DNA from: an uncultured Acidobacteriota bacterium
GTDB taxonomy: Bacteria; Acidobacteriota; Thermoanaerobaculia; Multivoradales; JAGPDF01
Direction: 5' to 3'
NCBI GenBank assembly: GCA_963700315.1
Contig: CAVOXC010000017.1
Coordinates: forward strand, 28,062-92,061
Length of the DNA stretch: 64,000 nt
The position numbers and the translations under genes are program-made. This document shows positions 1,159-60,681 of this stretch, one piece after another (positions within the stretch are counted from its first letter, which is position 1; each line of letters opens with the position of its first letter). The notes under the pieces are model-generated. The model was not told the DNA's origin, did not search any database, and saw nothing but the letters and a program-made list of their open reading frames with translations.

Positions 1159-1184
1159 TAGCTGGCACCTGTCGCACCTGGCCC
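1159..1184 (+). repeat. Copy of the recurrent intergenic motif (degenerate: GTAGCTGGCACCTGTCGCACCTGG)
   Basis: gaggtagctggcacctgtcgcacctgg. Extended 24-nt form shared with the copies at 16929 and 44775 (GGCACCTG-N3-CACCTGG). Confidence 0.6.
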
Positions 1185-1194
1185 GCGCGAGTGG

Positions 1195-1902
1195 TCAGGG
1201 CGCAGGTGGAGGGCTCGGCGGCGCGGCAGGGCGCGCTGGCGTCGCTGGTGCCGCGGGCGCTGCCGGCGCGGCCTCCGCGGCGGGCGCCGGCTGCGGCGGG
1301 TTGATCATGATGTGGGCGCCGGCGGTGCCGGGGAACATCAGCCAGGGGCCGCCCGGGCTCGCGGGGGAGAGCGGGAGGCCGGTCGACTCTTCGGTCGCCC
1401 AGGGTGTGTAGACGACGTAGCGCAGGTTGGCGTCGATCGCCGCGCCGGTGGCGGCATCGAAGCCCTTGCCGGAGAGGACGTAGAGCGTTGCGGGTGAGTC
1501 GGGCATCGCGAGCTTGCCTTCGTCCGCCTCGCGCCAGCGCTGCTGCATGCGCTCCTCGGCCGGGACGCCCGCCGCGTCGAGCTCGCGGCCGCGGCGCATG
1601 TAGGGCTCGAGCGAGCGGTGGTAGCAGGCGACGCTCCACCTCTCGTTGCCCGGTGCGTCGGCGATGCAGACGAGGTCGTTGCTCCCCGCGCGCAGCTCGC
1701 GCAGGACCACCTCTTCGCCCGCCGCGACGTAGCCGAGCACCTGGGCTTCGGCGCGCCGCTCCGCGGGCGCCGCGAGCAGCGCGCTCGCGATCTGCTCGTC
1801 GGCCGAGGGGAGCTCGGCCGCGCGCCCCCCGCCGGTGATCGTCAGCACGAGCGCAACGCCGAACGGAACCGCCATCCACCTGCTTCTCGTCGCCATCTTC
1901 AT
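1195..1902 (-). CDS. Hypothetical secreted protein with a Pro/Ala-rich C-terminal tail
   Basis: Internal ATG of ORF 1195..2226 gives MKMATRSRWMAVPFGVALVLTITGGGRAAE (signal peptide). The body has moderate complexity. The C-terminus is PQPAPAAEAAPAAPAAPATPARPAAPPSPPPAP. The upstream extension reads as arginine-rich junk. Confidence 0.5.
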   Translation of the reverse strand: MKMATRSRWMAVPFGVALVLTITGGGRAAELPSADEQIASALLAAPAERRAEAQVLGYVAAGEEVVLRELRAGSNDLVCIADAPGNERWSVACYHRSLEPYMRRGRELDAAGVPAEERMQQRWREADEGKLAMPDSPATLYVLSGKGFDAATGAAIDANLRYVVYTPWATEESTGLPLSPASPGGPWLMFPGTAGAHIMINPPQPAPAAEAAPAAPAAPATPARPAAPPSPPPAP

Positions 1903-2134
1903 CGCTTGGCCTCCGTCGACTCGGGCGGGCAAGAGCCGCGGCGCTTGCCGCGACCTGCGCCCGGTCGGAAGATTCTCTCGTACCGCGGCCGGACGCGATA
2001 CCCGGAGGGCCGCGGCGCGCAGGTGCCAGCCGAATCGCGAGCGTCGAGTCGGAGACGGTTGCGGATCTCGCCGAGGAGCCGGGTGGCGGCGACCGCGGCC
2101 GCTAGGATCCGAGCGGGGAGGGGCGCGGCCGCGC

Positions 2135-2896
2135 TCAGCCGCCGCCGGCCAGCAGCGGCAGGTAGTCGGGGCGCTCGGAGATCGTGTTGTGGGTGGCGCC
2201 GGGCACGATGGCGAGCGACGCCACACCCGGGCGGAAGTGGTCGAGGAGCGACTCGGCGAGGCGCCGCGGCACGATCTCGTCGCGCCCGGCGACGATCAGC
2301 TGGGTGGGCGCCGTGACCTTTGGCGCGTCCCGCCAGGCGTCGTAGCGATCCAGCAGCAGCCAACGCACCGGGAAGATCGGGTAGTGGTGCGCGCCGACGT
2401 TGGCGAGGCTGTCGAAGGGCGTCACGAGGACGAGGCGGGAGACCGGGCGGCGGCTCGCCACGTGAGTGGCGACGGCCGCGCCGAGGCTGCGGCCGACCAC
2501 GACGACCTCCGGGTAGACCGCGTGCACGCGGTCGAAGAGCGCCAGCGCGTCGGCGTCGAGGGCCTCCTCCGAGGGCTCTCCCGTGCTCCGGCCGTAGCCG
2601 CGGTAGTGGAGCGCGAAGAGGGCGCGCTCGGGGAAGGCCCGGTCGAGCTCCGGCAGGGTCCAGGCGACCGCCTCGGCGTTGCCGCCGAAGTAGATCACCG
2701 CGCGCTGGCCCTGACGCGGCAGGACGGAGACCGCGAGCCGTGCGTCCGGCACCGCCAGCGTCTCGATCTCGCCGGCCCGCGCGTCCCAGCGCGGCGGCAG
2801 GTAGATCATCGAGCGCTGCGTGAAGTAGAGCAGGAGGCAGAGCCCGACGTAGAACGCCGAAGCTGTCGCCACCAGGCTCACGATCGTGCGTCGCAT
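2135..2896 (-). CDS. Alpha/beta-hydrolase fold protein with an N-terminal membrane anchor
   Basis: Start MRRTIVSLVATASAFYVGLCLLLYF is a TM helix. Alpha/beta-hydrolase pattern ...VIYFGGNAE...HYRGYGRSTG...VVVVGRSLGAAVA (nucleophile-elbow-like G-x-S-x-G) ...VTPFDS...GATHN. The ATG is the 22nd codon of ORF 2135..2959. Confidence 0.7.
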   Translation of the reverse strand: MRRTIVSLVATASAFYVGLCLLLYFTQRSMIYLPPRWDARAGEIETLAVPDARLAVSVLPRQGQRAVIYFGGNAEAVAWTLPELDRAFPERALFALHYRGYGRSTGEPSEEALDADALALFDRVHAVYPEVVVVGRSLGAAVATHVASRRPVSRLVLVTPFDSLANVGAHHYPIFPVRWLLLDRYDAWRDAPKVTAPTQLIVAGRDEIVPRRLAESLLDHFRPGVASLAIVPGATHNTISERPDYLPLLAGGG

Positions 2897-2983
2897 CCGG
2901 TCACCGGGAAGCTCTCCCGCCCCGAGTGTAACCGCCCCTCCCTCTTCGGGAACCGGCACGGAGCCTGGGGCGGCGCGGGCGGC

Positions 2984-3319
2984 TCAGCCGAGGGGTCGGC
3001 CGGTCCCTTCCGGATCCGTGCCGTCGGCGCCGGGGCCATCGCCATCGCCGCAGTCGCCGGAGCCGATGTCGACCTGGAAAGCCGTGTTGAATGCAGCGCC
3101 CGACCCGAGCTGCACCGGTGTCGTGAGGAAGGCCGAGCCGGTCGAGCCTCCGACTGCGTCGGTCAGACGCAGGACGCCGCCCGTGCAGGTCGCCGAGCCG
3201 TTGAGCTGGAGCGCAGAGCAGTCGTTGCAGTTTGGAAAGTCGACGGCCTGCGGCGAGGCGGGCACCGCGGCGAGGGCGAAGAGCGACGCGACCGCGACGA
3301 GAGAGGAGCGGAAACGCAT
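2984..3319 (-). CDS. Small secreted hypothetical protein (~111 aa)
   Basis: Internal start MRFRSSLVAVASLFALAAVPASPQA (signal peptide), then a Gly/Thr/Cys-rich mature part. Position 44 of ORF 2984..3451; the upstream part reads as junk. Confidence 0.4.
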   Translation of the reverse strand: MRFRSSLVAVASLFALAAVPASPQAVDFPNCNDCSALQLNGSATCTGGVLRLTDAVGGSTGSAFLTTPVQLGSGAAFNTAFQVDIGSGDCGDGDGPGADGTDPEGTGRPLG

Positions 3320-3516
3320 GGACGACCTCCGTGACAAGAAACCGGCCGCAGCCCCGCGTCCGGTCGCTGTTTCGTTCGAGGAGAGGACACCGAACGGGCA
3401 ACGCTGCCGTCGAGCCCTCCCTCGGGCTCCGGGAGCGCCGGGGGAGGTCACGGGCGCGGCGCGCGGTACCCGTCTCCGCCTTGATAGCCTCTGCGGGACG
3501 AGAAGGGAGGAGCCAC

Positions 3517-4464: not shown

Positions 4465-4502
4465 CTCGGAAGCGGCGACTGGTACCGAGCCCGTCCCCGG
4501 AG

Positions 4503-5909
4503 TCAGCGGGTTTCGAAGGCGCCGCGGCTGGGCGGTGATGCGAAGCAGAAGCCGTCGAGGTCGCCCCAGCTCCAGGCGGTCGCCTGCCCGGTGCCGGCGG
4601 CGGGGCTCGCGGGGCCGATGCGGTAGCCGACGCCGAGCTGGGGGTCGACGCCGTAGAGGCCGCCGGTCTCGGTGACCGGGAGGCTGGGCTGTGACTGGGC
4701 GGGGTTGTCCCACGCGTACCAGAGGTTGCTCGCGAAGGTGAAGGTCTCCGGCGCGGTGTTCGGGCCGATGTTCAGGTGGGTCGAGAGCGCGCCGCGGTCG
4801 AAATAGACGAGGTTGTTGACGAAGACGCCGTCGCGGCAGGCCTCGAAGAGGTAGGGCGGCGAGCTGGTCGTCTCCTGGAGGATGCGCAGGATCCAGTTGT
4901 CGGGATCGACGATCGTGTTGTTCGCCACGACGCAGCCGACGCAACCGACGTAGGCGACGGCCGCGTCCGAGCCTTCGAAGACGTTGGCCACCACGCGCAG
5001 GTCGCGCGCCTCGGCGTTCGGTAGCGTCGTCGAGAGCGGCGGCCGGAAGAACTGGAAGCCGGTGCTGCCGCCGAGGTTCAAGCTGCGCGCGCCGGAGTCG
5101 ATGAAGCGGTTCCAGCGGATCTCGAGGTCGACGCTGCCGCCCTTGGATTGGATCGCGTTGGCCGAGAGGTCGTGGAAGAGGTTTCTGGCGAGCAGACCCT
5201 GGTGGCAACCGACGTGGTCGACGCCGCTGCCCGAGGAGCCGCCGCCGCAGAGCGCGAACTCCGAGAGCGCGACGGTGAAGTCGTTCAAGCCCGAGAGCTT
5301 GAGGCAGTCCTGGTTGCCGCCGGCGCCGATGTCGTGGATCCAGAGGTGGTGGAAGGTGAGGTGATGGGTCGCGAGCGGGTCGGCGTAGTCGCCGCCGTCG
5401 TCGGCGTTGATCCCATTCGCGGTCGCATTGCGCACCTCGAGGTCGTGGACCACCAGGTAGCTGCAGCGGGAGAGGTGCAGGCCCTCGCTGGCGCCTGCGA
5501 GCACCGGCCGCGGCTCGCCCGGCACGCCGCCGATCCAGATCGGCGCGGACTCCGTGCCGGCGAGGTCGGAGAGGAAGATGCCGCCGGCGTACGTGCCGGC
5601 ATGGACCCGGATGGCGCTGCCCGGCAGAGCGTCGTCCGCGGCTCTATCGATCGTCGCGTAGGGGTTCCCCGGAGTGCCGTCGCCGGTCGCGTCGTCGCCC
5701 GTGGTCGCGACGTGGATCTCGGTCGTCGGCGTAGCCCAGCGCCCGAAGGCCTCGAGCCGGTCGCACCGGGGTGGCACGACGGCGCTCCAATCGGCGCTGT
5801 CGCCCCACTCGAAGTCGCTCGAGAAAACAGCGTCCTGGGCCGACGCCGGGAGAGCTGCGAGGAGAATCCCCGCGATCGGCAGCGTGCGTCGAAGCGAGCT
5901 CGGCAGCAT
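4503..5909 (-). CDS. Secreted right-handed parallel beta-helix repeat protein (pectate-lyase-like fold)
   Basis: Start MLPSSLRRTLPIAGILLAALPASAQD (signal). Repeated beta-helix rungs such as IRVHAGTYAGGIF, LVVHDLEVRNATANGINAD, LTFHHLWIHDIGAGGNQDCLKLSG, LARNLFHDLSANAIQSKGG, VVANVFEG, VVANNTIV. Codon 60 of ORF 4503..6086. Confidence 0.7.
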   Translation of the reverse strand: MLPSSLRRTLPIAGILLAALPASAQDAVFSSDFEWGDSADWSAVVPPRCDRLEAFGRWATPTTEIHVATTGDDATGDGTPGNPYATIDRAADDALPGSAIRVHAGTYAGGIFLSDLAGTESAPIWIGGVPGEPRPVLAGASEGLHLSRCSYLVVHDLEVRNATANGINADDGGDYADPLATHHLTFHHLWIHDIGAGGNQDCLKLSGLNDFTVALSEFALCGGGSSGSGVDHVGCHQGLLARNLFHDLSANAIQSKGGSVDLEIRWNRFIDSGARSLNLGGSTGFQFFRPPLSTTLPNAEARDLRVVANVFEGSDAAVAYVGCVGCVVANNTIVDPDNWILRILQETTSSPPYLFEACRDGVFVNNLVYFDRGALSTHLNIGPNTAPETFTFASNLWYAWDNPAQSQPSLPVTETGGLYGVDPQLGVGYRIGPASPAAGTGQATAWSWGDLDGFCFASPPSRGAFETR

Positions 5910-6092
5910 GTCCGAGAAGCTAGTCCATTCGCCCCACCGAGCGCCATCGTGGACTGCGCAAGGGTGTGGCGGCGAGGGCTCTGGAGCTCGAAGTGGGCAG
6001 GACCTTCGTGGAGTACCCGCGCGCTCCGATGCCCCGCGCGGCGGTGACCTCACCCTCTTCGTTCTCCTTGGTCGCCGGCTTTCCAATCTCAG

Positions 6093-6893: not shown

Positions 6894-7055
6894 GTCGTCG
6901 ATCCTCTCAAAGGTCGCGCGCGCAGCATAGGAGCACGCCGAAGCGCCCGAGGCGAAACCCGTCTTCCTGATGCGTCTTTCAGGAGGCGGGCTTCGGGCGT
7001 TTTGACCCATCCCTCGCTGCGCTGCGGGGCACGACGACGAAAGCGATCGTCTCGC

Positions 7056-7070
7056 CAGGTGGCTGGCACC
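7056..7070 (+). repeat. Copy of the recurrent intergenic motif CAGGTGGCTGGCACC
   Basis: ...ctcgccaggtggctggcacctcagcg..., between the OmpA-like stop (7098) and the hydrolase start (6893). Confidence 0.65.
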
Positions 7071-7097
7071 TCAGCGCCTCGATGCCGAGAGTCAGCC

Positions 7098-7829: not shown

Positions 7830-7830
7830 C

Positions 7831-9574: not shown

Positions 9575-9735
9575 CAGCGCTCCATCCTGCGCCGGCTCGC
9601 CGGCCGAAGCGCCAATCCGAGCCCCGAGAATCGCCGAGACCTCCAGGCCGAGCGGGGAGTTGTCGAACCAGGTCGTTGGCACCTGTTCGGCGCGGCATCT
9701 CTGCGATTCGGCCCGGAAGGGGGGCCGCGTTCAGT

Positions 9736-10371
9736 CTATGACTCGGAACTCGATTGGGCTTCCATCTGGAAGGCTGCATATCCGGCGAGCGAGATTTGCT
9801 GCGGGATCGCATGCCTATCACAGCATCGATGGGCACGAAGTTGCCCGGATCCAAATCGCCGCCGAGTACGAATGGAACTCTTGGCATCAAACGGAAGCCT
9901 GTCGGCAGGGGTCCGTTGGAGACCTGCCAACGGTGTAAGTGCACAAATCCAGTTAGAGCTTCATATTCTGAGAGAAGCAGCTGGGCCCAGGATTCAAGCG
10001 AGCTGCAAAGCTCCTCCGTTTCACCTGTCGTTGCATCGAAGGAGAGAACACAATCCTCGCGAATGCGGAATTGTTTTCCGAAGGCGTCTTCCGCAAAGAA
10101 GTAGAGCTCCTTTGCTAGGTCGCCATACTCGTAGCGCCACAGGTTCTGGGTATTCCACAACTCGACCGGTATCGAATCGACTGCTGTGCCCGAAGGGAAT
10201 AGATGCAGAGCGCTCTCAAATGCATGGAATCCGTTCTTTCGAGTCTTTTAGTAGGAACCCAAGCTCCTCAAGAAGCGAGGAAGAAACAGAGTCCAAGGGT
10301 GTCTCGCCAGTCGTAGCACGATGACCTAGCGGCTGACTGCCGAGAGACAGGAGTTTCTTGAGCGCAGTCAT
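9736..10371 (-). pseudogene. Candidate RHS-associated immunity protein (SMI1/KNR4 or SUKH-like), disrupted by at least two frameshifts. Sits in a low-GC island just downstream of the RHS C-terminal toxin
   Basis: Minus-strand ATG at 10369-10371 gives MTALKKLLSLGSQPLGHRATTGETPLDSVSSSLLEELGFLLKDSKE. The protein continues in the +1 frame as NGFHAFESALHLFPSGTAVDSIPVELWNTQNLWRYEYGDLAKELYFFAEDAFGKQFRIREDCVLSFDATTGETEELCSSLESWAQLLLSEYEALTGFVHLHRWQ... (the N-part of ORF 9459..10160). A likely second shift leads into frame 9736..9930. Local GC is clearly lower than the flanks. The 3' end is uncertain. Confidence 0.35.
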
Positions 10372-10769
10372 GTACTTTCGGTGCCCACTACTCTACTACC
10401 TCGAGTCTTACCCGCGCTCCGTTTGGTACGCCGGTCAATTGGCGACCAATGGTCGCGCCAGCGCCTCGGTGGTGTCACTCGGATTGATTGGTCGGATGCT
10501 AGAGCCATAGCCCCCCTCAAGGAAGACGGCGGGTGGATATTCATCTCGATCTAGGCTCCTCACCCGCGGGACACCGCGAAGAGCCACAGCCCTTCGCATG
10601 GCAGCGTTGCTTCGATCGACAGTAAGTACCATTGGTTGGCCCGAGGCGACTCTGCATCGTCAATGTGTCTTGCCGCCTGTGGGTACCGCGTCCTGCTGAC
10701 AGTGACTACGCGAGAGGGGCGTCCTCCTTGGGAGTAGTGCTGACGGAGTTCGCCGCCTCCGCGGCAAAA

Positions 10770-13700
10770 TCAGGGCAAGAAGAAGACCTGCCGTGAGGCG
10801 TCTTTCAGGACGTAAAGCGATTCTGAATGGGCACCTTCAAAGAGGAGATCGTCGACAGCGATTGCAAGTGAAGAGAGTACGTGGATACTTGCAGCGATAA
10901 TCGCCACCAGCGCTGCAGCCTTGAAGATCGTTGGCGCGGCTAAAGCAAGCCGAATCGCGATGCCAGTCAGGAGACCTTGAAGAGTCTCGTGGCCGGATGG
11001 ATCTAGATGTGAGAGTGGTTCGCTACCTGCATAGAGATAGCGGTGGAGAGACACTGGTTCTGCTGCAATCCCGAAGAACGCATCCATCGATTGAAATCGG
11101 CCTACGAATGGCTCGAGCCACCTGGCTCGGTTGTAGTAGAAGCCGACGTTCGGGTCGAGCGCTTCTCCTGCGAAGAGGTAGGTGTTGGAATCGTCGCCCT
11201 GGTGGTCGAGCAGGGTTCCAAAGGCCTCGAGGGTGTATCTGTCGGTGACCTCTCCCGCCTGATTCGTGAGTGCCCGAATCGTTCCGATTCCTTCGGCGTG
11301 GAAGTAGCGGGGGATCCAGGCGCCAGGTGTACCTGGGTCGGGGCGTAGGGTGGCGAGGAGGTCGTCGCCTCTGACGTGGTAGGCGGTGAGGGTGCCGCTG
11401 CCGTCGGTTTCGGCGACGACTTGGCTCAAGACGAGGGTTCGGCCCGCGGCGCTGGTCTGGTGCCAGGGGTCGACGAGGTAGTCGACGGTTTGTGGCGGTT
11501 GGCCGGCGGGGGTGGTGACGGTTCGTACTCTCGTGCCGTCGGCGTCGTAGGTGTGGTCGACCGTCGTGCCGTCGGCGAGGGTCACGCGGGTCAGGCGGTT
11601 CTCGTAGTCCCACTCGTAGGTCGCGCCGTCGGGGCCGGTCTTGCCGGTCTGGTTGCCGTTCGGGTCCCAGGCGTAGGTGACTTCGTTCTCGGTCAGGAGG
11701 CGGTCGCGGGTGTCGTAGGTGTAGGCGACCGGGAGCGGGGTGCCGTCGCCCTGCGTGCGAGTCTGCTGGAGTCGATTGCCGACCGGGTCGTAGGTGAAGG
11801 CGTTGCGCCAGGCGGTCGGTGCATCCGGCGCCGTGCCATTCCTCGACGTGCTCGTCGGTCAGGCGGTAGAGCGGGTCGTACCGTAGTGGCGCGTCGTGCC
11901 GTCGTGCTCGACGATCTTGGTGCGGTTGCCGGTGGGGGCGAGGGTGTAGGCGAAGGAGACGATGGTGTCGCCGATGCCGTTGACCGCGGTGAGATCGAGG
12001 AGTCGATTCCTGTTGTCGTAGGCGTAGGAGGTTCCGACCCCGTTGGGGTGGGCGAGCGCCGCGCGGTTGCCGTTGGCGTCGTAGTCGTGGGCGTAGACGC
12101 CGCCGTCGGGGTCGGTGACGCTGTCGAGGCGGTTGAGGTCGTCGTAGCTGTAGGTCGTCGTCAGGAGCTCGCCGGCGACGTTGGCGGTGAGCGTCGTGCG
12201 GTTGCCGGCGAGCGTCGTGGGCGAAGCCGAGAGCGCGGCCGTCGGGATAGGTGATCGCCGTGACCCGGTCGCGCGCGGTCGTAGCCGTAGCTCGTCGTGC
12301 CGCGCGCGTCGACCATCGTCGCGCGCCGGCCGCTCGGCGTGTAGGTGAAGGCGTGGAAGCTGCCGTCGGGGTAGTCGCGCCGGGTCAGGCGGCTCGCGAG
12401 GTCGTAGCTGTAGCGGGTGAGCGCGCCGTCGAAGGCGACGCGGGTCTTCCTCTGGCCGGCGAGGTCGTAGGTGAAACGCTCGGTCGAGCCGCCGGGGAGA
12501 ATGCGCGCGGTCTGGCGGCCGAGGGCGTCGTAGTCGAAGCGGGTGACGTGGCCGTTGGCGTCGGTCTGCGAGATTCGATTGCCGAGCTCGTCGTAGCCGT
12601 AGGACGTGACGCCGCCCAAGGCGTCGGTGACCGCGGTCAGCCGGCCGAGCGCGTCGTAGGCGAACGCCGTCCGCACGCCCGCCTCGTCGATCTCCGCCGT
12701 CCGTCGTCCCAGCGGGTCGTACTCGCTGCGCCGGCTCGTGCCATCCGGGAAGACGGTGCGGACCATGCGGCCGAGCACGTCGTAGAGGAAGAGCGTCGCG
12801 ACGCCGCGCGGGTCGGTGACGCGGGTCTGGTTGCCGGCGGCGTCGTAGGCGAAGGCGGTCGAGCTGGCCGAGCGCGTCGGTGATCGAGAGGCGCCGGCCG
12901 GCGTCGTCGTAGGCGAAGGTGCGTCTCGTGGTCGCGGGCGTCGATCGCGCGCTCGAGCCGGCCGGCGGTGTCGTAGCGCTGTTCGATCTCGGCGCCGTCG
13001 GGGAAGCGGGTGAGGAGGAGCCGGCCGGCGAGGTCGTACACGAGCTCGGTCGAGCGGCCGGCGCGATCGCGGACGAGGGTGCGGCGCCCCTCGGCGTCGT
13101 ACGCGGTTGCTTCCAAGGTGCCGTCCGGGTGGTCGACGCGCGTCTGGCGGCCGAGGTCGTCGTAGGTGAGGGTCGTGCGCCGGCCGAGCGGGTCGACGGT
13201 CGCGGTGACCTGGCCGAGCGCGTCGTACTCGGTCGCGGTGAGCTGAGCCGTCGGGCGCGGTGCTCGAGAGCAGCCGGCCGGCGGCGTCGTAGACGAAGTG
13301 GGTGACGAGCGTCTCGGTGGTGCCGTCGGACCGGGTGCGGCTGCGCGTTTCGGTCCGCCGGTTGCCGGTCGAGTCGTAGGTGAACGTCGCGACGCTGCCG
13401 AGCGCGTCGGTCTCCGGCGAGGAGGTTGCCGCGCGAGTCGTAGGCGTAGCGGCTGATCTCGCCGAGCGGGTCGGTCTCGGTGAGCAGGTTGCCGCGGCTG
13501 TCGTAGGTGTAGGCCGTGAGTTGGCCGGCGGGGTCGGTCGTCTGGAGGAGATTGCTCTTCGAGTCGTAGGCGTTGGCGGTGACGCGTCCGTTGGGATCGG
13601 TCGAGGTGAGGACGTTGCCCTTGGCGTCGTAGGTGAAGGCGGCGACGTTGCCGAGCGGGTCGGTGACCGCGGTGAGGTTGCGGCTCGCGTCGTAGGCGTA

Positions 13701-16664
13701 GAGCGTCGGCGGCAGGTCGGCGATCGCCTCGGTGAGGAGCTGGTCGTCGGCGTCGAAGCGTGCGCGTGGTCGGCGACGCCGGTCTCGTCGATCTCGAGGA
13801 GAACGTTGCCGCGCGCGTCGTAGTAGAGCGAGCGCGAGGCGCCGAGGCGGTTGGTGACGACCTCGAGCCGCTCGCCGATGCGGTGGTCGTAGACGATCTC
13901 GTGGCCGTAGGCGTCGACGTGGCGGGTGAGCCGGCCGTCGGGGCCGTACTCGTTGCGGATCGGCGTGCGGCCGAGCGGGTCTTCGATCTCTTCGAGGTAG
14001 TGGCCGACGGAGTAGCGGATCTCGGTCACCGCGCCGGTGCGGTCGGTGACGGCGACGAGATCGCCGTCGCCGTCGTAGCCGTAGCCGAGCTCGCCGCCGG
14101 CCGGTTCGGTGATCCGCGTCACGCGCCCCTCGCCGTCGCGCTCGAAGGCGATCGAGACGCCGGAGGAGTGGGCGATGCCTCCCGGCGTGAAGGTCAGCGT
14201 GTTGTCGTTGGCGTCGACGATCTTGGTGACGCCGACGCCGCGCTCGAGCTCGAGCTTCCTGCCGTCGCGCGTGGTCAGCCGGACGCGCGCCGGGTGGAAG
14301 AGCTCGAAGCTCTCCGCAGTCGACCAGGCGCGTGTCGCCGTTGGCCCAGAAGACGGTGGTGTTGCCGAGCACCTGGAGGGTCGCGCCCGGCACCGGGCCG
14401 TCGACGAACTGGTAGGAGACGTTGGCGAAGCAACCGCCGCCGGTCGGGGCGAGGCTTCCGAGCACCGGCCGGAAGCGGTAGATCTCGCGATCGGTGAGGC
14501 GAATCGTCGAGAGATGGGGCGCGAGCTCGAGCGCCTGCTGGCAGGGCAGGACGCCGGCGGCGATCCGCCAGTCCGTGCCCGGCACGCGGTTGTGGACGAG
14601 GCTGCCCTGGCGGAGCTCGAGCGTCCAGCCGAAGCCGAAGTCGCCGCGAGCGCTCGCGGCGGCGGCTGTCGTAGCTGCGCAGCACCTGGATCGGCAGGCC
14701 GGCGAGCGGCACCTCGAGGTCGACGAAGGTGAGGGCGAAGTGGCCGATCTTCATCTGGCCGTCGACCACGACGTCGACCACCTGCTCGGCGGTGCGCCCC
14801 AGGGTGTCGGCTGCGGAGAGCCGGAGCTCGTAGAGACCGTTCTCGAGCAGCGTCGGGTCGAAGGTCGCGAGCGGCTGCGCCTCGACCGTGGCGGTGCCCG
14901 TGGCGAGCGGCGATCCAGGCCGGCGTCCCCCTCGGCGCGGAAGAAGAGCTCCCAGCCGGCGAGGGACGGCGAACGGACCGTGCCGACGACGGCCGTCGGC
15001 TCGGTCACCTCGTCGAGATCCGTGGGCGCGAGGATCGAAACCGTCGGCCCGTCGGTCGCGTTCGAGATCGTGAGCGTCGTCGCCGCGGTCGCGTAGATCC
15101 AGTAGCCGCGGCCGGGGCGGAGCTCCGCGAGGTCGTTCGCCCACGCGGGCACCGCCGGGTCGTAGACCTCCCAGGGATCCTCCGGGTCGGTCGGGTCGAA
15201 GCCGAAGACGCGCAGGTACTGACCGGCAATCGAGGCGAGCGCGGCGGCGACCGGTCGTGGCGACGACGCCGGAAAGCCGACGAGATTCCAGCCGAGGCAG
15301 AGCGGGATCGCGGTCTCGACCGGCTCGGGGCCGGCTTCGGGGAGCGTCGTTCCCGCGCTCCCCTCGAGCCAGAAGCCGATCGACGGCGAGATCGCCGCGA
15401 GATCGTAGCCGCCCGGCGCGGCGGGATCCCAGAGCTTCCAGGGATCGGCGAGACATCGCAGGCGTCGAAGGCGTAGACGCGGGAGTACGGCGCCCGCGAT
15501 CGGTGCGAGCACCGCGGCCGGCGCTGGATCGCCCGGGGTCCAGGAGATCGAGAGGAGATTCCAGGCCGGGAGCACCGGGACCGAGACCTCGGGGGTGGCT
15601 GCGAGCAGCTCGAGCGGCGGCGAGGCCTCCCCCTTCCGAACGAGCGAGAAGTCGGGAGGCGACGGCGGCGGCGGAACCTTTGCGAGCGGCGCGCTCGGCG
15701 CGCGCGGCGAGGGGCGCTCGCGGATGCCGTAGGGATCCTCCGGGTCCTGGGCTCGCCCTTCTTCCGTAGCCGATCTCGTCTCTTGCTCGGGCTGGGCGAG
15801 CGGGGGCGCGAAGGCCTCCGCGGGGCCCGCGGAGGCCTTCGAAGCGGCGCCGAGGTAGTTCGCTCGCTGCGAAAGCTTGCTGTTTAGGGGGGAAGGGCCG
15901 GAGATCGTGGCGCTCCGCGGACGGGCGCCGGCGGCGCTCTCGATGCTCGCGGCAAAGCTGGAGCTGCCGAGGCGGCCGTCGGCAGCCGCGGCATGCGAAC
16001 TGCCCACCCCTTCACTGGCAGCTCTCTCGGACCTGGGCCAGGCCCGAGCGGCGTCGGCAGCCGCGGCGAAGGCACGGCCCACCCCTTCACTGGCAGCTCT
16101 CTCGGACCTGGGCCAGGCCCGAGCGGCGTCGGCAGCCGCGACGAAGGCACGGACCACCCCTTCACTGGCAGCCTTCTCGGACCTTGGCCAGGTCTGAGGA
16201 GCGTCGGCAGCCCCGGCGAAGTCTCCGCCCGCCCTTTCACTGGCAATCTTCTCGGACCCTGGCCAGGCCCAAAGAGCATCGGCAGTCGCGACGAAGGCGC
16301 CGCCCACCCCTTCACTGCCAGCTTCTTCCGACCTCGGCCGGGCGCGAACGGCGTCGGCAGTCGCGGCGAGGGTCCGCCCGAGCCAAGACCGAACCAGGGC
16401 GAGCCCGGGCTGGACTCGGTCCGTGGCGAGCTCGAGGGCGGAGACGCGCCGCTGCTCGCCGTCGCGGAGGGTCGCGATGCCGAGCTCAACCGGCAGGCCG
16501 AGACCGAGCAGGGGGCCGGTCGGCAGCAGCGCCGAGGCAAGGAGGACCTTGGCCACCGCCCGCTCGAAGGATCCGAAGCCCGACCGGAAGCCGCCCGCCC
16601 CGCCCCGGCCGCCGCCATCCCCGATCGAACGGTCTCTTCCCCGGTCCCCTATCGCTCGCCCCAT
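10770..16664 (-). pseudogene. RHS/YD-repeat toxin gene (~1960 codons) broken by at least 8 frameshifts. Parts: N-terminal 25-aa tandem repeats, an RHS N-region, many YD repeats, the RHS core end motif, and a short hydrophobic C-terminal toxin module
   Basis: Fragments in several minus frames. 14751..16664 has the N-terminus MGRAIGDRG... with WPRSERAASEGVGRAFAAAADAARA repeats. 14275..15456 has ...VDLEVPLAGLPIQVLRSYDS. Frames 11859..14585, 12161..14122 and 12637..13116 are dense in YD repeats (TYAYDASRNLTAVTDPLGNVAAFTYDAKGNVLTSTDPNGRVT..., GYGYDGDGDLVAVTDRTG..., YSYDDLNRLDSVTDPDGGVYAHDYDANGNR...). 10770..11585 carries the last YD repeat YNRARWLEPFVGRFQSMD and the core-end motif HRYLYAGSEPLSHLDPSGH (matches N.Y.Y..N.P....DPxGL). 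A ~70-aa hydrophobic C-terminal module TLQGLLTGIAIRLALAAPTIFKAAALVAIIAASIHVLSSLAIAV... follows. Confidence 0.7.
15920..16340 (-). repeat. About five tandem copies of a 75-bp (25-codon) repeat inside the N-terminal region of the RHS gene
   Basis: Plus strand: cccaccccttcactggcagctctctcggacctgggccaggcccgagcggcgtcggcagccgcggcgaaggcacgg recurs with period 75 starting near 16004 and 16079, with more diverged copies on either side. Encodes AWPRSERAASEGVGRAFAAAADAAR-type units. Confidence 0.7.
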
Positions 16665-16791
16665 GCCTCTCCTCCGACAGCCGGTTCAGAAGGGTGCGAC
16701 TCGAGAGACGGATTCCGGTGCAACAAACTTGCGGCGAGGGCTCGAATCGCGTCCTGAGCACCGGGCCCGGCAGCTAGCCGGGCACGCCGCG

Positions 16792-16831
16792 CCAGGTGGC
16801 TGGCACCCGGCCTGACCACGTGGCTGGCACC
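16792..16831 (+). repeat. Two adjacent copies of the motif (CCAGGTGGCTGGCACCC ... CACGTGGCTGGCACC), 130-170 bp upstream of the RHS start
   Basis: gccaggtggctggcacccggcctgaccacgtggctggcaccttcgcg. Confidence 0.65.
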
Positions 16832-16926
16832 TTCGCGCGGGGCCGTCCAGTGCTGCCATTCACCAGGCAAGCCGCTGAATCCTCGAGACTTACGACGTGC
16901 TACCAGGGGCCTGGCGCCGGGGCAGA

Positions 16927-16952
16927 CTAGGTGGCTGGCACCTGGGACACCT
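16927..16952 (+). repeat. Copy of the motif in extended form (CTAGGTGGCTGGCACCTGGGACACCTGG)
   Basis: gactaggtggctggcacctgggacacctggg. Third copy in the 380-bp interval between the RHS start and the TPR gene end. Confidence 0.65.
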
Positions 16953-17043
16953 GGGAGAAGGAGCTGGGCGGTTCGCGGTGGGCGTCGGATCTGAGAGCTC
17001 GCTGAGGTTGGCGAGAGGGCGGACGGGCCGGTGGCCGGCGTCC

Positions 17044-19156
17044 CTATCGAACCTGGATCGTGACGGTCAGAGTCCCCTGGTTGTCGCTGAAGTTGCCCGG
17101 GGTGTCGTTGATGCTCAGGTAGAGACGACCGGCGGCCGGGGTCGGGCCGGAGAAGCGCTCACCGACAGTGAAGGTGGCGCTCGCCCACCTTGGCGACGAG
17201 CGCGGCGAGGGGGGCCGACGCCACGATCGTGCCCGGATGGATGTACTCACCGTGGCCGCCCGGGCCGAGAGCGGGCGGGCCGGTGTTCGACCAGCGGCCG
17301 GTCGCGGCGAGCTCGATCGACTGTCCTGTCGTGACATCGACGCCGGTGTCGAGCCACTCGACCGTGGCGGGCACCTCGATGCGGACCGGCTGGGCCGGGA
17401 TCGCGGCGCGCTGCGTCAGCATGCCGACGTTCGAGTAGGTCCGCGTCACGGTGGCCACCGACTCGCGCCAGGCCGGGGTCGTCTCGACCTGAACCTCCTT
17501 CGGGCCCGGCGCCGGAGCGGGTTCGGGCTCGACTCTCTGGTACCGCTCGACGGCTTGCAGCTGGTCGGGGGAGAGCCTGTCCGCCGTGACGCCGCGCAAG
17601 ACCTTCTGGCTCGCCGGAGCGTCGCCGACCTCCTCGAAGCGCTCGGCGGCCAGCAACCGTACCTCGAGTCCGCGCTTCGGCTCGCCGGTGGCTTCGAGTC
17701 CCTGGGCGTAGAGCAGCGTCAGGTCGGGATCGACCTTCGACTTCTGGGGCAGGTCGGAGCGCGACGTTCCGGCATCGAGCCGCCGCGCGACATCGAATGC
17801 GCGGCCGAGCTGGAAGAGCGCCGTCGTCGGCTGGCTCGTCGTCCCCCAACCCATCCTGCCGTTCACCGCGAGCGAGCCGTAGATCTGCCCCAAGGCGCGG
17901 TGGTACTCGAGGATCTTGTCGAGCTGACCGAGCTCGTAGGCGCGGTTCTTCGCGGCGAAGAGCCGGCCGGCGGGGTCGGCGTACTCTGCGGCGAGCGCGT
18001 CGAGCGCGGGGAGGTCGCGGCGCTCGACGTAGAGGTTGGCGAGGCTGCGCAGCGTCAGCGGGTCGGGGTCGTCGGCGAGGTCGACCGCGGCGCGGTAGCA
18101 GGCGGCGGCGGTCGCCGTTTCACGCCGTTCGCGGTAGCCGTCCCCGATCGCGCGCAGCGCCGCGCGAATGGCGTCCCGCCGCGGGAGGCCGCGCCTCTCG
18201 GTCCACTCGTCGTAGGGCTCACGCCACCAGCGGAACGGCTGCGCGTAGTTGCCGGGCGAGGCGTAGAGGCGGAGCAGCTCGGTGACGCCCGCGCCGAGAC
18301 CCGGCTCGTCGACGAAGCGCCGCAGGCGCCGAACTCTGGGCGATTCGAGGATCTCCAGAGGCGTGGCGTGCGCCTGCGCGAAGCTCGCCGCGATGGCGGC
18401 AAGCAACTCGGCGCGCAGGTAGGAGGGCCAGCCCGCCTCGAGCGCCGCCAGGGCGAGATCGGCGCCGCGCGAGGCCTGCCGGCCCTCGACCAGGCGCCAG
18501 AGGTAGCCGAGCAGGCGGTGCGGATCGCGGTCGCGAAGCTCGAGGTAGCGCCGCTGCAGGAGCTCGTGCGGCGCGTCGAGCCGCGGCTCGAGCAGCACGA
18601 CCTCCTCGTAGACTCGGAAGGCTTCGTCCCAGCGTTCCTGGTCGCGCAGGAAGTCGGCCCACTGCTGGAGGTAGAAGACCCGTCGGCTCCCGGGGCGCGA
18701 GGCGGCGAGCTCGAACGACTTCGCGGCGTTCGCCGAGTCGCCCAGGGCGAGCTGCGCCTTGCCGAGGTTGTAGAGCGCGGCGACCGCGCCGGGCTTGAGC
18801 TCGAGGACGCGGCTGTAGCCGGCCGCGGCGTGGCGCAGCAGCTCCTGAGCCTCCTCTCCTTCCCCCTGTTTCTCGGCCGCGAGCTGCTCCTCGACCGCCT
18901 GCTCGAATCGGAGCCGAGCTTCGACTGTGGCGGCCTCGGTCTTGGCCAGAGCGGCTTCGTTCCGGGCTGCCGCGGCTTCCGCCTGGGCCGCGACGGCTTC
19001 GGCTTTCACCGCGGCAGCTGCGGGCTCGACCGCCTTGGCCGTGACCTCGGCCCTGGCGCGGACTTCGGGACTCGCCTGGGCCTCGAGCGGAGCGTGTGCG
19101 CAGAGCGCGAGCGCGACCAGGGTGACGGACCCGACCCTTGTCGACTTTGCGCTCAT
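17044..19156 (-). CDS. Secreted TPR-repeat protein with a C-terminal lectin-like beta-sandwich domain (PA-IL/LecA-like ending). One apparent frameshift near 17195
   Basis: Start MSAKSTRVGSVTLVALALCAHAPLEAQA (signal; codon 195 of ORF 17159..19738). A coiled-coil, Ala-rich segment is followed by TPR-like helices (ALYNLGKAQLALGDSANAAKSFELA..., WDEAFRVYEEVVLLEP...). The C-terminus ...TGQSIELAATGRWSNTGPPALGPGGHGEYIHPGTIVASAPLAALVAKVG shifts frame into ORF 17044..17337: ATFTVGERFSGPTPAAGRLYLSINDTPGNFSDNQGTLTVTIQVR*. Its ATG overlaps the stop of the upstream gene (ATGA). Confidence 0.65.
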
Positions 19157-20067
19157 GGCGTCCCCCCTTCCTCGAGCGTCGTGACGATGCCGGCCTCGAC
19201 CTCCAGCGGATTCGGCTTGTAGATCTTCATGTAGACGAAGGGCTCCCGACAGGTGTCGAGCAGCTCTTGCAGGCGTGGGTGCCAGGCGAGTGGCAGCGCG
19301 TTGACGGCCGGAGCGCCGGAGACGATGCCGGCGCAAGCGAAGCTCTCGAGCAGGAGCTGGGTGCGCTCCCCCTCGATGTCCCCCGGGTGGGCGACGAGGC
19401 GGCGATCGAGGCGATTCTGGAAACGGACCTCGATCTCCGACTCGGCTTTGGCCTTGAGCCCCTTGAGCGGCAGGTAGAGCTTCTGCAGCGCGGCGTCGGG
19501 CGCGAGCGATTTCGAGACGACGATCTCCGAGAGGAAGCGCTCCTCGAGCGCCCGCATGGCGTCGGCGTCCTCGGCGACACGGTGCGCCAGCTCGGCGACC
19601 TTGGCGACGAGCTCCGTGGCGGTCATCTCGGGCGCGGCGAGGTCGCAGAGCGCCGAGAGCTCCAGCTCCGGGTAGGTCCAGGCGACGATGCCCCCACGCT
19701 CTGCCCGGAATCGCGCGCGGACCGAGGGCGGATCGCACGCGCCGCTCGGACCGTCGGCGAGGAGCAGTACCCAGCGCGGCGCGTCCGCCACGGCGTCTGG
19801 CGCCGCCGGCGTCCAGTCGAGGTAGAGGAAGCTCGCGTGCGCGATGCGCGCGAGCTCGGTCTCGACCGCCGCGACGACCTCCGGTGTGGTCAGGCGCGTC
19901 TGGTCCAGGGTCGAGCCCGGCTCGATCCGGAGCTCGACGAGCACCTGACGCAGAGGCTGGGCGGTCGCGGGCAGCGCGACGAGGAGCGCGGCCGCGACCA
20001 GCGGCGCGAACCGACGGCGCGGCCGCTCAGAGGTTCGCGGCGGGTTCGACGAACACCAGGTCGACAT
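19153..20067 (-). CDS. Hypothetical secreted protein (304 aa). Overlaps the 3' end of the CHAT gene by 41 nt and the start of the TPR gene by 4 nt
   Basis: MSTWCSSNPPRTSERPRRRFAPLVAAALLVALPATAQP is a signal peptide. Clean ORF with normal complexity and good GC3 bias. Confidence 0.55.
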   Translation of the reverse strand: MSTWCSSNPPRTSERPRRRFAPLVAAALLVALPATAQPLRQVLVELRIEPGSTLDQTRLTTPEVVAAVETELARIAHASFLYLDWTPAAPDAVADAPRWVLLLADGPSGACDPPSVRARFRAERGGIVAWTYPELELSALCDLAAPEMTATELVAKVAELAHRVAEDADAMRALEERFLSEIVVSKSLAPDAALQKLYLPLKGLKAKAESEIEVRFQNRLDRRLVAHPGDIEGERTQLLLESFACAGIVSGAPAVNALPLAWHPRLQELLDTCREPFVYMKIYKPNPLEVEAGIVTTLEEGGTP

Positions 20068-33347: not shown

Positions 33348-33614
33348 CCCGGCGGGGGCTCCGGGGAACCGCCGCGCGGCCGTGCAGTCGGTGCTTGGCC
33401 GCGATCAGCTCGCGCAGCAGCGACAGCTGCTCTTCCCAGATGCCCAGGAGCTCGACCCAGCGCACCCTTTGCAGCTCGTCGATCTTGTCGTGCAGGCGGC
33501 GGATCTCGATCTCGGCCTTCAGGTTGACCCGGGCGCGAGGTGCCAGCCTCTTGGCGGGGCGGCCGGGAGCTGGCTGCCCTTCCTGCTGCAAGTGACGAAT
33601 CGGCAAGGGGTTGC

Positions 33615-33630
33615 CAGGTGGCTGGCACCC
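33615..33630 (+). repeat. Copy of the motif (CAGGTGGCTGGCACCC) between the proline iminopeptidase gene and the reprolysin-like protease gene
   Basis: ttgccaggtggctggcaccctccccaccc. Confidence 0.65.
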
Positions 33631-33764
33631 TCCCCACCCTCTCCACCCTCCCGCCGCTCCCGCGCAGGTTCCTGCCCGCAGAGAGGTGGCAGCGGGGTCG
33701 AGCGAGTGAGAGACTGCCGCTCTTGCGCGCCGAAGCCAACGACTTTTGAGAAAGGTAGCGAGCG

Positions 33765-38198: not shown

Positions 38199-38310
38199 GC
38201 AGGCGCCGGGTGACCTGAGGTCGAGAGCCGAGGTCAGGAGACAATCGCTTGGCGCGGTGGTCGCGGCGCGCCTGTGGGATGCTCCGGGGATTCATGGGAG
38301 CCCGAGACAC

Positions 38311-40582: not shown

Positions 40583-40617
40583 CGACGGCTCCGCCGGCCA
40601 GGTGGATCGGACGGCCA

Positions 40618-41649: not shown

Positions 41650-41651
41650 GG

Positions 41652-42479: not shown

Positions 42480-43930
42480 TTCGGAGAGCTCCTTTCGAAC
42501 ATCTGATTCGCCTGCCGCCGGATGCGGAGGGCGGTGAGCGCGCAACGCGCGTTGGAGTGCGCCGGATCGATCGCGAGGGCGCGCTCGAGCGCGCCCTCGG
42601 CCGGGTCGAGCCGCTCAGCGAGCATCAGCTCGATCCCCAGGTTGAGCCAGGGCCGGGCCCGGCCCGGCGCCTTCGCGGCGGCGTCGGACCAGAGCGCGGC
42701 GGGATCGGAGTAGAGACGCGCCCGCTCGTGCGCTCGCAGGGCGAGCGAGGTCGTCGGCAGCAGGAAGAGCAGACCGCCGACCGCGACCCGGGCGACGCGA
42801 GCGGCGCCGCCGACCGACGACCATGGCCGGCGGCTGAGAGCGCGCACGACGCCGGCCGCGAGCGCCGCGAGCGGCACCAGCGTGGCGAGATAGAGGGGGC
42901 GCGCCGACACCGGGTCGAGCCGCCAGATCACGGAGTTGGTCGGCGCGAGGGCGAGCAGCGCCCAGCCGCAGGCGAAGGCCGCGAGCGGCAGCCGGTGGCG
43001 CGCCACGAACGCGAAGGCTGTCGTCGCGGCGAGCAGCGCCAGTCGCAGCAGCGTCGCGGGCGCGCTCCAGGGCAGGTCCATGGTGGGGGCCGGATCGATC
43101 GAGATCCGCCCGGGCTCGAGCCAGAGCCGCACGATGTCGAAGAGCGCGAAGACGTTGCCGCGCAGCGCCGCGAGCGGCGGGCGCACGGCGAAGCTGTAGG
43201 CGAGGAGCTCGCGATGCCGCGCTGAGAGCGCGAGAGCCACCGCCGCGAGCAGTACCCCGGCGAGCAGGGGCAGCTGGCGGCGCAGAGCCGCCGCGCGGCT
43301 CTCGCCTGTGCCGAGGGTCGCCTGCCAGAGCAGGCCGAGCGCCGGCAGAACGAGCGCGGTCTCGCGCGCGAGCGGCGCGGCGAGGGCGAGGAGCGCGGCG
43401 AGCCCGGCGACGGCCAGCCCGGGCGGTCGATCGTCCGTGACCAGGAGCAGGGCGGCGAGCAGGAGCAGGGTCGAGAGCAGCACCGAGCGTCCGGTCACCG
43501 GCGCCACCGCTTCGACCACCGCCGGGTGGAGTGCCCAGAGGGCGGCGGCGAGCGCGCCGACAAGCTCGACGCGGGGCGCGCCGGCGCGGCGAGCGAGCCG
43601 CCGCGCGAGCAGGAAGGCGGCGAGCGCGCAAGCGAGATGGAGGGCGAGATTGACCGCATGGAACGGACGCGCCGCGGCGCCGGTGGTCGCGCGCTGGAGC
43701 GCATAGGTCGCCTTGAGCAGAGGGCGGTTGGTGCGGCCGAGCGCCGGCAGGAATCCCTCGGGGCTCGCGGCGGCGTTGTCGAGGACGTCGACCTGGTCGT
43801 CGAAGATGAAGCCGGCGTCGAGAGTGGGTGCCAGAGCGGCGCCGACCGCGACGAGCAGAAGAGTCGCCATGAGCGCGGTTTCGCGCAGGGTCGGGAGCGG
43901 AAGCAAGGTGCGGGGCCGCGTGCGCGCCAT
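42476..43930 (-). CDS. Polytopic membrane protein with a C-terminal TPR domain (TMTC/O-mannosyltransferase-like architecture)
   Basis: About 10 predicted TM helices (LMATLLLVAVGAAL..., LALHLACALAAFLLA, LLLLAALLLV, LAALLALAAPLA, LLAGVLLAAVALAL ...). C-terminal TPR-like helices (AKAPGRARPWLNLGIELMLAERLDPAEGALERALAIDPAH). Conserved early loop FIFDDQVDVLDNAA. Confidence 0.65.
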   Translation of the reverse strand: MARTRPRTLLPLPTLRETALMATLLLVAVGAALAPTLDAGFIFDDQVDVLDNAAASPEGFLPALGRTNRPLLKATYALQRATTGAAARPFHAVNLALHLACALAAFLLARRLARRAGAPRVELVGALAAALWALHPAVVEAVAPVTGRSVLLSTLLLLAALLLVTDDRPPGLAVAGLAALLALAAPLARETALVLPALGLLWQATLGTGESRAAALRRQLPLLAGVLLAAVALALSARHRELLAYSFAVRPPLAALRGNVFALFDIVRLWLEPGRISIDPAPTMDLPWSAPATLLRLALLAATTAFAFVARHRLPLAAFACGWALLALAPTNSVIWRLDPVSARPLYLATLVPLAALAAGVVRALSRRPWSSVGGAARVARVAVGGLLFLLPTTSLALRAHERARLYSDPAALWSDAAAKAPGRARPWLNLGIELMLAERLDPAEGALERALAIDPAHSNARCALTALRIRRQANQMFERSSPK

Positions 43931-44109
43931 CGACGACTCGGGTCCGGAGTCGAAGCTCGGGCGGGACGCTAGCTCAGATTCCTGCCGGCGGCGAGAGGGG
44001 GGACATGAGGCGGTTCCGAGGCGGCGCCAGACGCCCGGATGGGATCATGCTCTGGCTGTATATAGTCAAGCCGAGGTCAACAACCGCCGCAGGCGAGGGG
44101 AGGGCCATC

Positions 44110-44607
44110 ATGAGCAAGCGTCGGAGCTTGGTTCTTGTCGGCATGTGCGGAGTCTTGGCATTCGGCGCTTTGCCATCGTTCGGCGCCGACACTGTCGACA
44201 TCGTTCGGGTCCGACCCGCGTCGCGAATCATCCGGGGGGTCACGACGGGAACGGTCTCGCATCGTCCGGGTGAGTTCATCGAGATCACCGTGCGCTACAA
44301 CCTCGAGTCGGATTGCCCGCAGACTGGTCGCGCGGGAACGCTCCGCGGCTACTGGGGTCTCGACACGGATGGTCCGCTGCCGTTCGACATCCTGCCCGGA
44401 CCCGGTTCTGAGATCGATCAGCCCATTGCAAGAACCGGACGTGGGCAGTACAAGTTCCGTTGGTCGTTCCAGTGTCACCCGGGCGCGCCGCCGTTGGTGA
44501 CGGGCTACATCTGGAATCTCGGAGCCTCGCTCTCGTGCTCGACAGGCGAGCTCGACTTTGTCGAGCCGCTGCTCGGCCTCGACTACTGGATCATCGACTG
44601 CAGCTGA
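44110..44607 (+). CDS. Hypothetical secreted protein (165 aa), Cys-containing
   Basis: MSKRRSLVLVGMCGVLAFGALPSFGADT is a signal peptide. Internal ATG (codon 36) of ORF 44005..44607. Confidence 0.55.
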   Translation: MSKRRSLVLVGMCGVLAFGALPSFGADTVDIVRVRPASRIIRGVTTGTVSHRPGEFIEITVRYNLESDCPQTGRAGTLRGYWGLDTDGPLPFDILPGPGSEIDQPIARTGRGQYKFRWSFQCHPGAPPLVTGYIWNLGASLSCSTGELDFVEPLLGLDYWIIDCS

Positions 44608-44772
44608 GGCGCGGTCCATCGAGGGTCGCCGCGGCCCGCCCCGCTCCCCTCGCGGCTGCCAGGAGACGTCGAGAGAGGACGACCGCCCGCTGGCTCAGGG
44701 CGCCGCGGCCGACCAAGCCGACTTGTCGCCCCTCGCGAAGTTGTCGATCAGCAGAACGTCGATCTGCACTTG

Positions 44773-44796
44773 CTAGGTGGCTGGCACCTCGCGGAC
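44773..44796 (+). repeat. Copy of the motif in extended form (CTAGGTGGCTGGCACCTCGCGGACTTGG)
   Basis: tgctaggtggctggcacctcgcggacttgg. Same 5' context CTAGGTGG as the copy at 16927. Confidence 0.65.
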
Positions 44797-60652: not shown

Positions 60653-60681
60653 GCCGCGCTCGGCGCGGGTAGGATTCGCCG

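Follow-up and report, generated by a model that had tools for sequence, protein, structure and literature searches.

A 13-nucleotide motif, GGTGGCTGGCACC, recurs between the genes of a 64,000-nucleotide stretch of DNA from an uncultured Acidobacteriota bacterium (contig CAVOXC010000017.1, positions 28,062 to 92,061; hereafter, the window). It is a real and non-random repeat, and we consider it probable that it is the conserved core of a short interspersed element of the REP (repetitive extragenic palindrome) or TIR (terminal inverted repeat) type, spread by a RayT-like transposase of the HUH, Y1 class. The motif is enriched in the window and intergenic there; in other genomes it is associated with a transposase gene; copies in both settings share a tandem-duplication footprint; and in one relative it lies in an in-frame insertion within a conserved gene. 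Most likely, then, it is a new member of the REP/RAYT kind (RAYT, REP-associated tyrosine transposase), more precisely of the TIRtrons, and not a gene-regulatory signal. The description of TIRtrons, in which the gene is flanked by plain inverted repeats, fits the motif best, compared with that of classical REPs.

An enriched intergenic motif

A search of both strands of the window with GGTGGCTGGCACC, allowing up to one mismatch, returned eight sites, all on the plus strand. Six are exact (starting at 7058, 16795, 16930, 27042, 33617 and 44776) and two carry one mismatch; the minus strand holds none. The initial annotation, made by reading the sequence, had already counted at least eight. Its division into seven exact copies and one near copy does not stand: the site at 16819, listed there as an exact core, is a one-mismatch copy, CGTGGCTGGCACC. 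Its coordinates were also displaced, by one nucleotide at 16796, 16931, 27043 and 44777 and by four at 1161. The claim that the motif is rare by chance is borne out, eight copies comparing with a mean of 0.16 and a maximum of one in 100 dinucleotide-preserving shuffles. The motif gives the window's most frequent 12-mer outside GC-rich low-complexity words, and its reverse complement is absent. All strict copies fall within 1-45 kb of the window, leaving 45-64 kb without any. With its GGTG...CACC half-sites, the motif is an imperfect dyad.

The window is about 70% G+C, with about 90% G+C at third codon positions. Gene boundaries were taken from open reading frames (ORFs), codon-position G+C, Pfam matches and the lengths of homologues; a crude window classifier based on third-position G+C is too coarse for short intergenic stretches, so the ORF and homologue boundaries were used for these. 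ORFs, Pfam matches and homologue boundaries agree that every strict copy lies between genes, as had been noticed at the outset, with the qualification that the copy at 44776 abuts the GTG of a coding-like ORF. Since the flanking genes run either way, the orientation of the motif is independent of the direction of transcription. The single orientation reported initially holds for the strict 13-mer but not for a relaxed core, GGCTGGCACCT, which adds two copies on the minus strand (2022-2034 and 33539-33551). With these included, the copies in the window occur as singlets, as one head-to-tail cluster (16795-16942) and as one inverted doublet (33539/33617), whose two members face each other by their 5' ends, 65 nucleotides apart.

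The motif flanks a RayT-like transposase gene in other genomes

Relatives of the motif were sought by scanning a genome collection with AGGTGGCTGGCACC and a metagenome collection with GCCAGGTGGCTGGCACC; loci from these other genomes and metagenomes bear L-numbers, and the figures given refer to the matches listed. Among the matches listed, most are chance matches in coding DNA, such as those in polynucleotide phosphorylase (..DMDFKVAGT..), in the ATP synthase alpha subunit (..MRQVAGT..) and in a peptide repeat of a non-ribosomal peptide synthetase in L052. A minority of loci are informative. At one of them, L082, the exact 13-mer lies 70 nucleotides upstream of, and divergent from, a gene fragment whose product begins MPRVNR. 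Homologues of this gene were first found as N-terminal fragments, and an extended search led to a family of proteins of about 348 residues, with 6990 matches at E <= 1e-10, several of them from Planctomycetota metagenome-assembled genomes. Many members are labelled 'REP element-mobilizing transposase RayT' by JGI (Joint Genome Institute). The family has two invariant motifs, SNHLHVVV, which corresponds to HUH, and YVDLNPIRAG. The NCBIfam model REP_Tyr_transpos (NF047646) matches the protein with an E-value of 5e-10 and 39 bits, below its cut-off of 80; the match to Pfam Y1_Tnp (PF01797) is weak (E 1e-3 to 4e-3) and likewise below cut-off. A comparison by hhalign gave a 93% probability of relationship to the Y1_Tnp protein of L001 across the tyrosine region, GRFWEGRF...YVDLNPIRAG. 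The AlphaFold2 model (pLDDT 51) is too poor for a fold test, and a PDB sequence search with the protein returned no meaningful match.

The form GGTGG[A/G/C]TGGCAC[C/T] is present 62-110 nucleotides upstream of the RayT-like gene, on the opposite strand, in all nine loci that carry the gene. A second copy, on the same strand as the gene, follows 52-131 nucleotides downstream in each of the three loci where the 3' flank is visible (L249, L250 and L251). The gene is thus bracketed by inverted copies of the motif, with their 5' ends pointing inward. In every set of copies, information content drops to background right after GGCAC(C/T), and this abrupt loss of conservation is the signature of an element terminus. 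The RayT-like genes are found near contig ends and fall into large clusters of near-identical sequences, which suggests that they are multi-copy elements.

Some of these loci have features of their own. The RayT-like genes of L244 (4001-4562) and L245 (255-1067) are broken after about 50 codons, where some 20 codons with four in-frame stops take the place of about four residues (IRSR) of intact homologues. Either these are pseudogenes, or a small element has inserted into them. In L250 (2004-3230), an IS200-like gene (Pfam Y1_Tnp, 2130-2573, minus strand) stands between two direct copies of the motif, at 2004 and 3171. The two share a near-identical 30-nucleotide 5' flank, with one difference, and the pair adjoins the RayT-like gene.

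A tandem duplication at the 3' end of the motif

A tandem duplication follows many copies of the motif; it begins 2-7 nucleotides inside the 3' end of the motif and takes in 5-14 nucleotides of unrelated flank, as in L250, where GCACCGGGGTCTGGCT is present twice. A single scoring rule was applied to all sets of copies, with 11,400 random positions as background. Among the copies flanking transposase genes, 9 of 17 have the duplication at a score >=8, and the same number at >=6. The GC-rich relatives have it in 4 of 17 at either threshold. For the window copies, the count is 1 of 10 at >=8 and 3 of 10 at >=6. The random positions score 0.6% and 2%, respectively. This shared footprint ties the solitary copies of the window to the transposase-flanking ones by a feature that is independent of the motif sequence. 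No description of flanking tandem duplications of this kind was found in the REP literature examined.

Three instances can be followed in the window, all on the plus strand. At 1163-1180, a tandem duplication with a unit of nine nucleotides (TGGCACCTG / TCGCACCTG, 8/9 match) begins within the 3' end of the copy at 1157. At 16939-16956, a perfect nine-nucleotide duplication (CACCTGGGA twice) begins 4 nucleotides before the end of the copy at 16930. At 33626-33652, three nine-nucleotide tandem units, CACCCTC(C/T)C, begin 4 nucleotides before the end of the copy at 33617. The first two account for the 24-nucleotide 'extended form' of the motif that the initial annotation had proposed for three copies: it is not an extended consensus but a local duplication at 1157 and 16930, and the match at 44776 is weak.

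Related repeats and an insertion into a helicase gene

Non-coding copies of the motif form arrays and pairs in several lineages. A single intergenic region of the 5-kb contig L002, which is also the source of a hydrolase 90% identical to one encoded in the window, contains G(C)GGCTGGCACC three times, twice on one strand and once on the opposite one. A Pirellulaceae contig, L014, has nine co-oriented copies in 700 nucleotides. Inverted hairpin pairs are found in L025, L040, L055, L060 and L068. In several Acidobacteriota contigs, such pairs (aaaGGTGGCTGGCACC-ttcccgggaa-GGTGCCAGCCACCttt) of the same 13-mer form a GGTG foot and a stem of 13-14 bp. Doublets with their 5' ends facing each other are seen in L002, L100 and L097. 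Two GC-rich metagenome loci add further arrangements: L132 (GC 0.72) has at least seven copies in 11.6 kb, in both orientations, and L186 has three in tandem. A common cause is needed to explain why one and the same 13-mer forms non-coding repeat families in several phyla.

The closest relatives of the window, L001-L003 (77-90% protein identity), show no synteny around the motif sites of the window. A full-text literature search with the 13-mer and its complement gave no match, and the 11-mers within it match only primers and Kozak contexts. L001, in which the hydrolase is 77% identical, has a repeat of another family: five copies of a 47-nucleotide palindrome (AAATGGGGACAGGCACGC...GCGTGCCTGTCCCCATTT) lie at 13144-19904, and two of them bracket a Pfam Y1_Tnp gene (19146-19787). 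The repeat matches the TIR type that Di Nocera et al. describe, GGGGWSAS. This candidate, with its GGGGACAGGCACGC palindromes around the Y1_Tnp gene, was set aside as a different family; it is absent from the window.

Evidence that the element enters new sites comes from L132. At 5091-5198, two copies of the motif lie inside a DEAD-box helicase gene, within an in-frame insertion of 108 nucleotides, or 36 amino acids. Alignment to the solved helicase CshA places the 36 residues exactly between two that are adjacent in CshA.

How the repeat might spread

The proposed mechanism is as follows. The motif would be the sequence recognised by a RayT-like HUH/Y1 transposase acting on single-stranded DNA. 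The autonomous form would consist of the gene of about 348 codons between two inverted copies of GGTGG-N-TGGCAC(C/T), and the copies in the window would be gene-less derivatives, mobilised in trans. The enzyme is predicted to nick near the end of the motif (GGTGGATGGCACC), 2-7 nucleotides before its 3' end; nicking followed by re-synthesis could then duplicate in tandem the last 2-7 nucleotides of the motif together with 5-14 nucleotides of flank. We propose that the copies remain mainly between genes because insertions are tolerated there. The source genome presumably encodes the cognate transposase; the link to that genome is made by sequence identity and by the shared footprint, the window itself having no transposase gene. 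If the motif is a REP/TIR-type repeat, the three-copy cluster is upstream of the RHS gene only incidentally.

A bias towards the plus strand might result from single-strand transposition on the lagging-strand template. With about six independent loci (two-sided p ~0.03), the bias is only suggestive. The two relaxed copies on the minus strand and the occurrence of both orientations in L132 and L002 weaken it still more. A genuine bias would fit single-stranded transposition at the replication fork, which has been shown for IS200/IS605.

Several points weigh against transposase-driven spread. The window copies lack the classical REP palindrome of 20-40 nucleotides and have only hairpins of 4-6 bp, which differ between copies. 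Most transposase-flanking copies differ from the window motif at the sixth base (A or G for C), the exact 13-mer being present only in L082. If singlets are remnants in decay, six identical ones are unusual. The assignment of the RayT-like family falls below the curated cut-offs of both Pfam and NCBIfam. Finally, tblastn searches for RayT-like or Y1 genes found none in the window and none in the GC-rich loci examined.

A more ambitious proposal can be made only tentatively. The motif would mark a large RayT-like family, of which no description was found in the literature examined, and whose nicked terminus repeatedly makes micro-duplications of the flank; in-frame expansion of proteins would be a further outcome. 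The element family, with thousands of homologues of about 348 residues, is seen from Planctomycetota-like contigs to GC-rich, probably myxobacterial DNA.

Alternative explanations

The initial annotation had left three options: a REP-like element, a transcription-factor operator and a structural RNA signal. The first gains from the inverted transposase termini seen elsewhere, from the common footprint and from the in-frame insertion in a relative. An operator, that is a site where a dimeric transcription factor would bind the GGTG...CACC half-sites and control nearby secreted-hydrolase, RHS and protease genes, appears unlikely. The imperfect dyad would suit it, two or three of the sites are in divergent or upstream regions (27042, 33617 and the 16795-16942 cluster), and several neighbouring genes encode secreted enzymes. 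The idea is nevertheless unsupported because the copies stand at varied distances from gene starts and stops, two of them 26-28 nucleotides past a stop codon. In addition, orientation ignores gene direction, the neighbours have no obvious common function, and at nine loci the motif makes up the ends of a transposase gene. The independent tandem duplications of arbitrary flank that follow the motif also speak against an operator. In the helicase gene of L132, two copies lie in the in-frame coding insertion, where the binding site of a regulator is not expected and an inserted repeat would be. The common orientation, which had been advanced against a simple promoter, is a weaker argument than was claimed, because relaxed copies occur on the other strand and relatives have both orientations.

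We consider a role in RNA just as improbable as an operator: a small hairpin in untranslated regions would terminate or stabilise transcripts or be bound by a protein. Two hairpins can be drawn (GCCAG-GTGG-CTGGC and GGTG-GCTGG-CACC), the C/T and A/G variation in the 5' arm keeps G-T/G-U pairs on the plus strand, and two copies stand directly past stop codons; REPs are described as acting in 3' untranslated regions. Against this, the whole window has no Rfam match, and when the copies were folded with their flanks, the folds differed from copy to copy, with z-scores mostly from -0.6 to -1.7; only the copy at 27042 lies within a longer palindrome. No run of T/U follows any copy, and no terminator-like site falls over a copy in 1-20 kb. 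Moreover, most copies would be transcribed in antisense relative to those at 33617 and 44776, so that the RNA would differ.

We give still less weight to the idea of a polar motif oriented by replication, of a type with Chi or KOPS, that follows the leading strand. All eight strict copies are on the plus strand, and cumulative GC skew rises across the window. Polar motifs, however, are also found in coding DNA, while these copies are only intergenic; the orientation counts as about six independent loci, at the p-value given above; relaxed copies are on the minus strand; and L132 and L002 hold both orientations within a few kb.

A sigma-54 promoter element is hardly credible: the consensus is TGGCAC-N5-TTGC, and GCTGGCACC includes the TGGCAC hexamer, so that CTGGCAC could be read as a -24 box, but a GC or TTGC at the -12 position, 10 nucleotides after GG, is missing from all eight copies (checked by hand), the conserved GGTGGC 5' of TGGCAC is not in the consensus, and copies directed away from downstream genes are as common as copies directed towards them. 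No -12 element stands at this distance and the flanking conserved bases differ; the common hexamer is a resemblance only.

The copies in their genomic setting

The first copy in the window, at 1157-1169 (plus), is the one-mismatch form GGTAGCTGGCACC (GGTAGC...); it lies 26 nucleotides past the stop of a minus-strand gene (1195-1905) and upstream of a gene ending at 870. The relaxed copy at 2022-2034 (minus), TTCGGCTGGCACC(T), lies between genes. It is similar to the ATCGGCTGGCACCT variant found in L002 and L186 and is a probable member of the family. The exact copy at 7058-7070 (plus) is 28 nucleotides past the stop of an OmpA-family gene (7098) and 165 nucleotides 5' of the start of an alpha/beta-hydrolase gene (6893). 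Homologues of this hydrolase have 266 amino acids, and the best match is 90% identical.

The intergenic region that holds the three-copy cluster is bounded on one side by the start of the RHS-region ORF (16664, minus strand) and on the other by the stop codon of a TPR gene (17159). The cluster comprises an exact copy at 16795-16807, the one-mismatch copy (CGTGGC...) at 16819-16831, head-to-tail with the first and 24 nucleotides after it, and an exact copy at 16930-16942, all on the plus strand. As initially described, the cluster is upstream of the RHS gene, which is on the minus strand; it begins 131 and ends 278 nucleotides from the ORF start. The RHS-repeat gene (11400-16664) switches reading frame about eight times, and the N-terminal part of the RHS-region ORF contains a 75-nucleotide tandem repeat (15902-16351) of at least five copies, 61-100% identical to the reference copy. 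Directly downstream of this minus-strand gene, at 9600-11300, G+C falls to about 0.5-0.6 and no codon periodicity is clear; the segment could be a variable toxin/immunity tip.

The exact copy at 27042-27054 (plus) is, as annotated, in the divergent DUF2235/M36 intergenic region, where it forms the right arm of an imperfect palindrome of about 17 bp (27024-27061). On one side, the DUF2235/Tle1-like gene (25373-26760) has a frame shift near 26200. On the other, the M36 fungalysin gene (27125-29903) is split into an FTP part (27125-28252) and an M36 C-terminal part (29178-29903). The frame changes in the RHS, DUF2235/Tle1-like and M36 genes mean either that these are pseudogenes or that the long-read assembly contains indel errors.

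At 33617-33629 (plus), an exact copy preceded by GGTTGCCA lies 136 nucleotides 5' of 33765, the ATG of a gene whose product has a signal peptide. Its partner in the doublet, the relaxed copy AGAGGCTGGCACC(T) at 33539-33551 (minus), is of uncertain status, as it sits in a stretch whose third-position G+C is coding-like. The minus strand at 33375-33560, which overlaps this copy, has strongly coding-like codon-position G+C and encodes ...VNLKAEIEIRRLHDKIDEL..., with no Pfam match.

The last exact copy, at 44776-44788 (plus), is found between a secreted-protein gene that ends at 44607 and a coding-like ORF of 132 amino acids (44777-45175). A TAG at 44774-44776 closes the upstream frame. The GTG of the ORF, at 44777, corresponds to bases two to four of the motif.

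Beyond this point, the motif-free third of the window (47569-63810) is rich in signalling genes. Two genes, at 47569-50412 and 58109-60652, encode hybrid histidine kinases that have receiver domains, and the sequence of a third kinase region (61003-63810) is divided between frames. This part of the window also encodes a DUF4388 protein. A lactonase-type beta-propeller gene at 53065-54070 has internal repeats of 141 nucleotides. In the window as a whole, no tRNA, no Rfam family at gathering thresholds and no transposase gene was found.

Implications and comparison with known systems

Reading the motif as a mobile repeat discards the tempting interpretation of a regulon operator or a sigma-54 element upstream of RHS, protease and hydrolase genes, and it bears on the annotation of promoters and small ORFs in such GC-rich genomes. 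Should the duplications arise as proposed, the element would be more than a passive repeat: it would be a site-specific generator of micro-duplications of adjacent host DNA, and the reproducible duplication of its end could help the study of end processing by HUH enzymes. The helicase of L132 indicates that such repeats can remodel and expand a conserved protein. The RayT-like family would be a very large one, missed by the Pfam and NCBIfam models at their cut-offs, with a terminal motif of 13 nucleotides that persists across phyla.

In the literature, REPs consist of a foot of 4-6 nucleotides (GTAG, GTGG, GGTG or GGTAG) and a hairpin; they flank their RAYT gene and are scattered through intergenic DNA, singly, as inverted dimers or in clusters. 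The window motif resembles REP/REPIN-RAYT systems, such as the REP-BIME of E. coli and the REPINs of Pseudomonas fluorescens, in being short, extragenic, repeated and partly palindromic. Like them, it starts with a GT(A/G)G- or GGTG-type foot (GGTG/GGTA in the window), is found singly, in inverted doublets and in clusters, for the most part between genes that run the same way, and, in other lineages, flanks a RayT-like HUH/Y1 gene in inverted orientation. It differs from them in having a conserved core of 13-17 nucleotides without the hairpin of 20-40 nucleotides. The associated protein, of about 348 residues, is about double the size of classical RAYTs and scores below the Pfam and NCBIfam cut-offs. 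In contrast to a single-copy, domesticated RAYT, its gene is present in many copies near contig ends, which is more like an insertion sequence.

With IS200/IS605 (TnpA, Y1), the present element would share an HUH/Y1 enzyme that acts on single-stranded DNA, an expected replication-linked strand bias and the lack of a classical target-site duplication bracketing the element. The ends of IS200/IS605 are subterminal hairpins without terminal inverted repeats, whereas those of the present element are inverted repeats of 13-25 nucleotides, each with its own tandem duplication.

TIRtrons (Di Nocera et al. 2013, PMC3733652) are TIRYT genes, which are RAYT-like, flanked by TIRs that also form families of dispersed repeats; the TIR-derived repeats, which include dimers and clusters, usually lie between genes in unidirectional or convergent order. 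The published TIR motif, GGGGWSAS, is different and was found here in the unrelated L001 element, and GGTGGCTGGCACC was not found in the supplements of that paper. TIRtrons nevertheless have in common with the present element a RAYT-like gene that lies between inverted repeats, not hairpin REPs, and a terminal repeat that is also dispersed through the genome in dimers and clusters.

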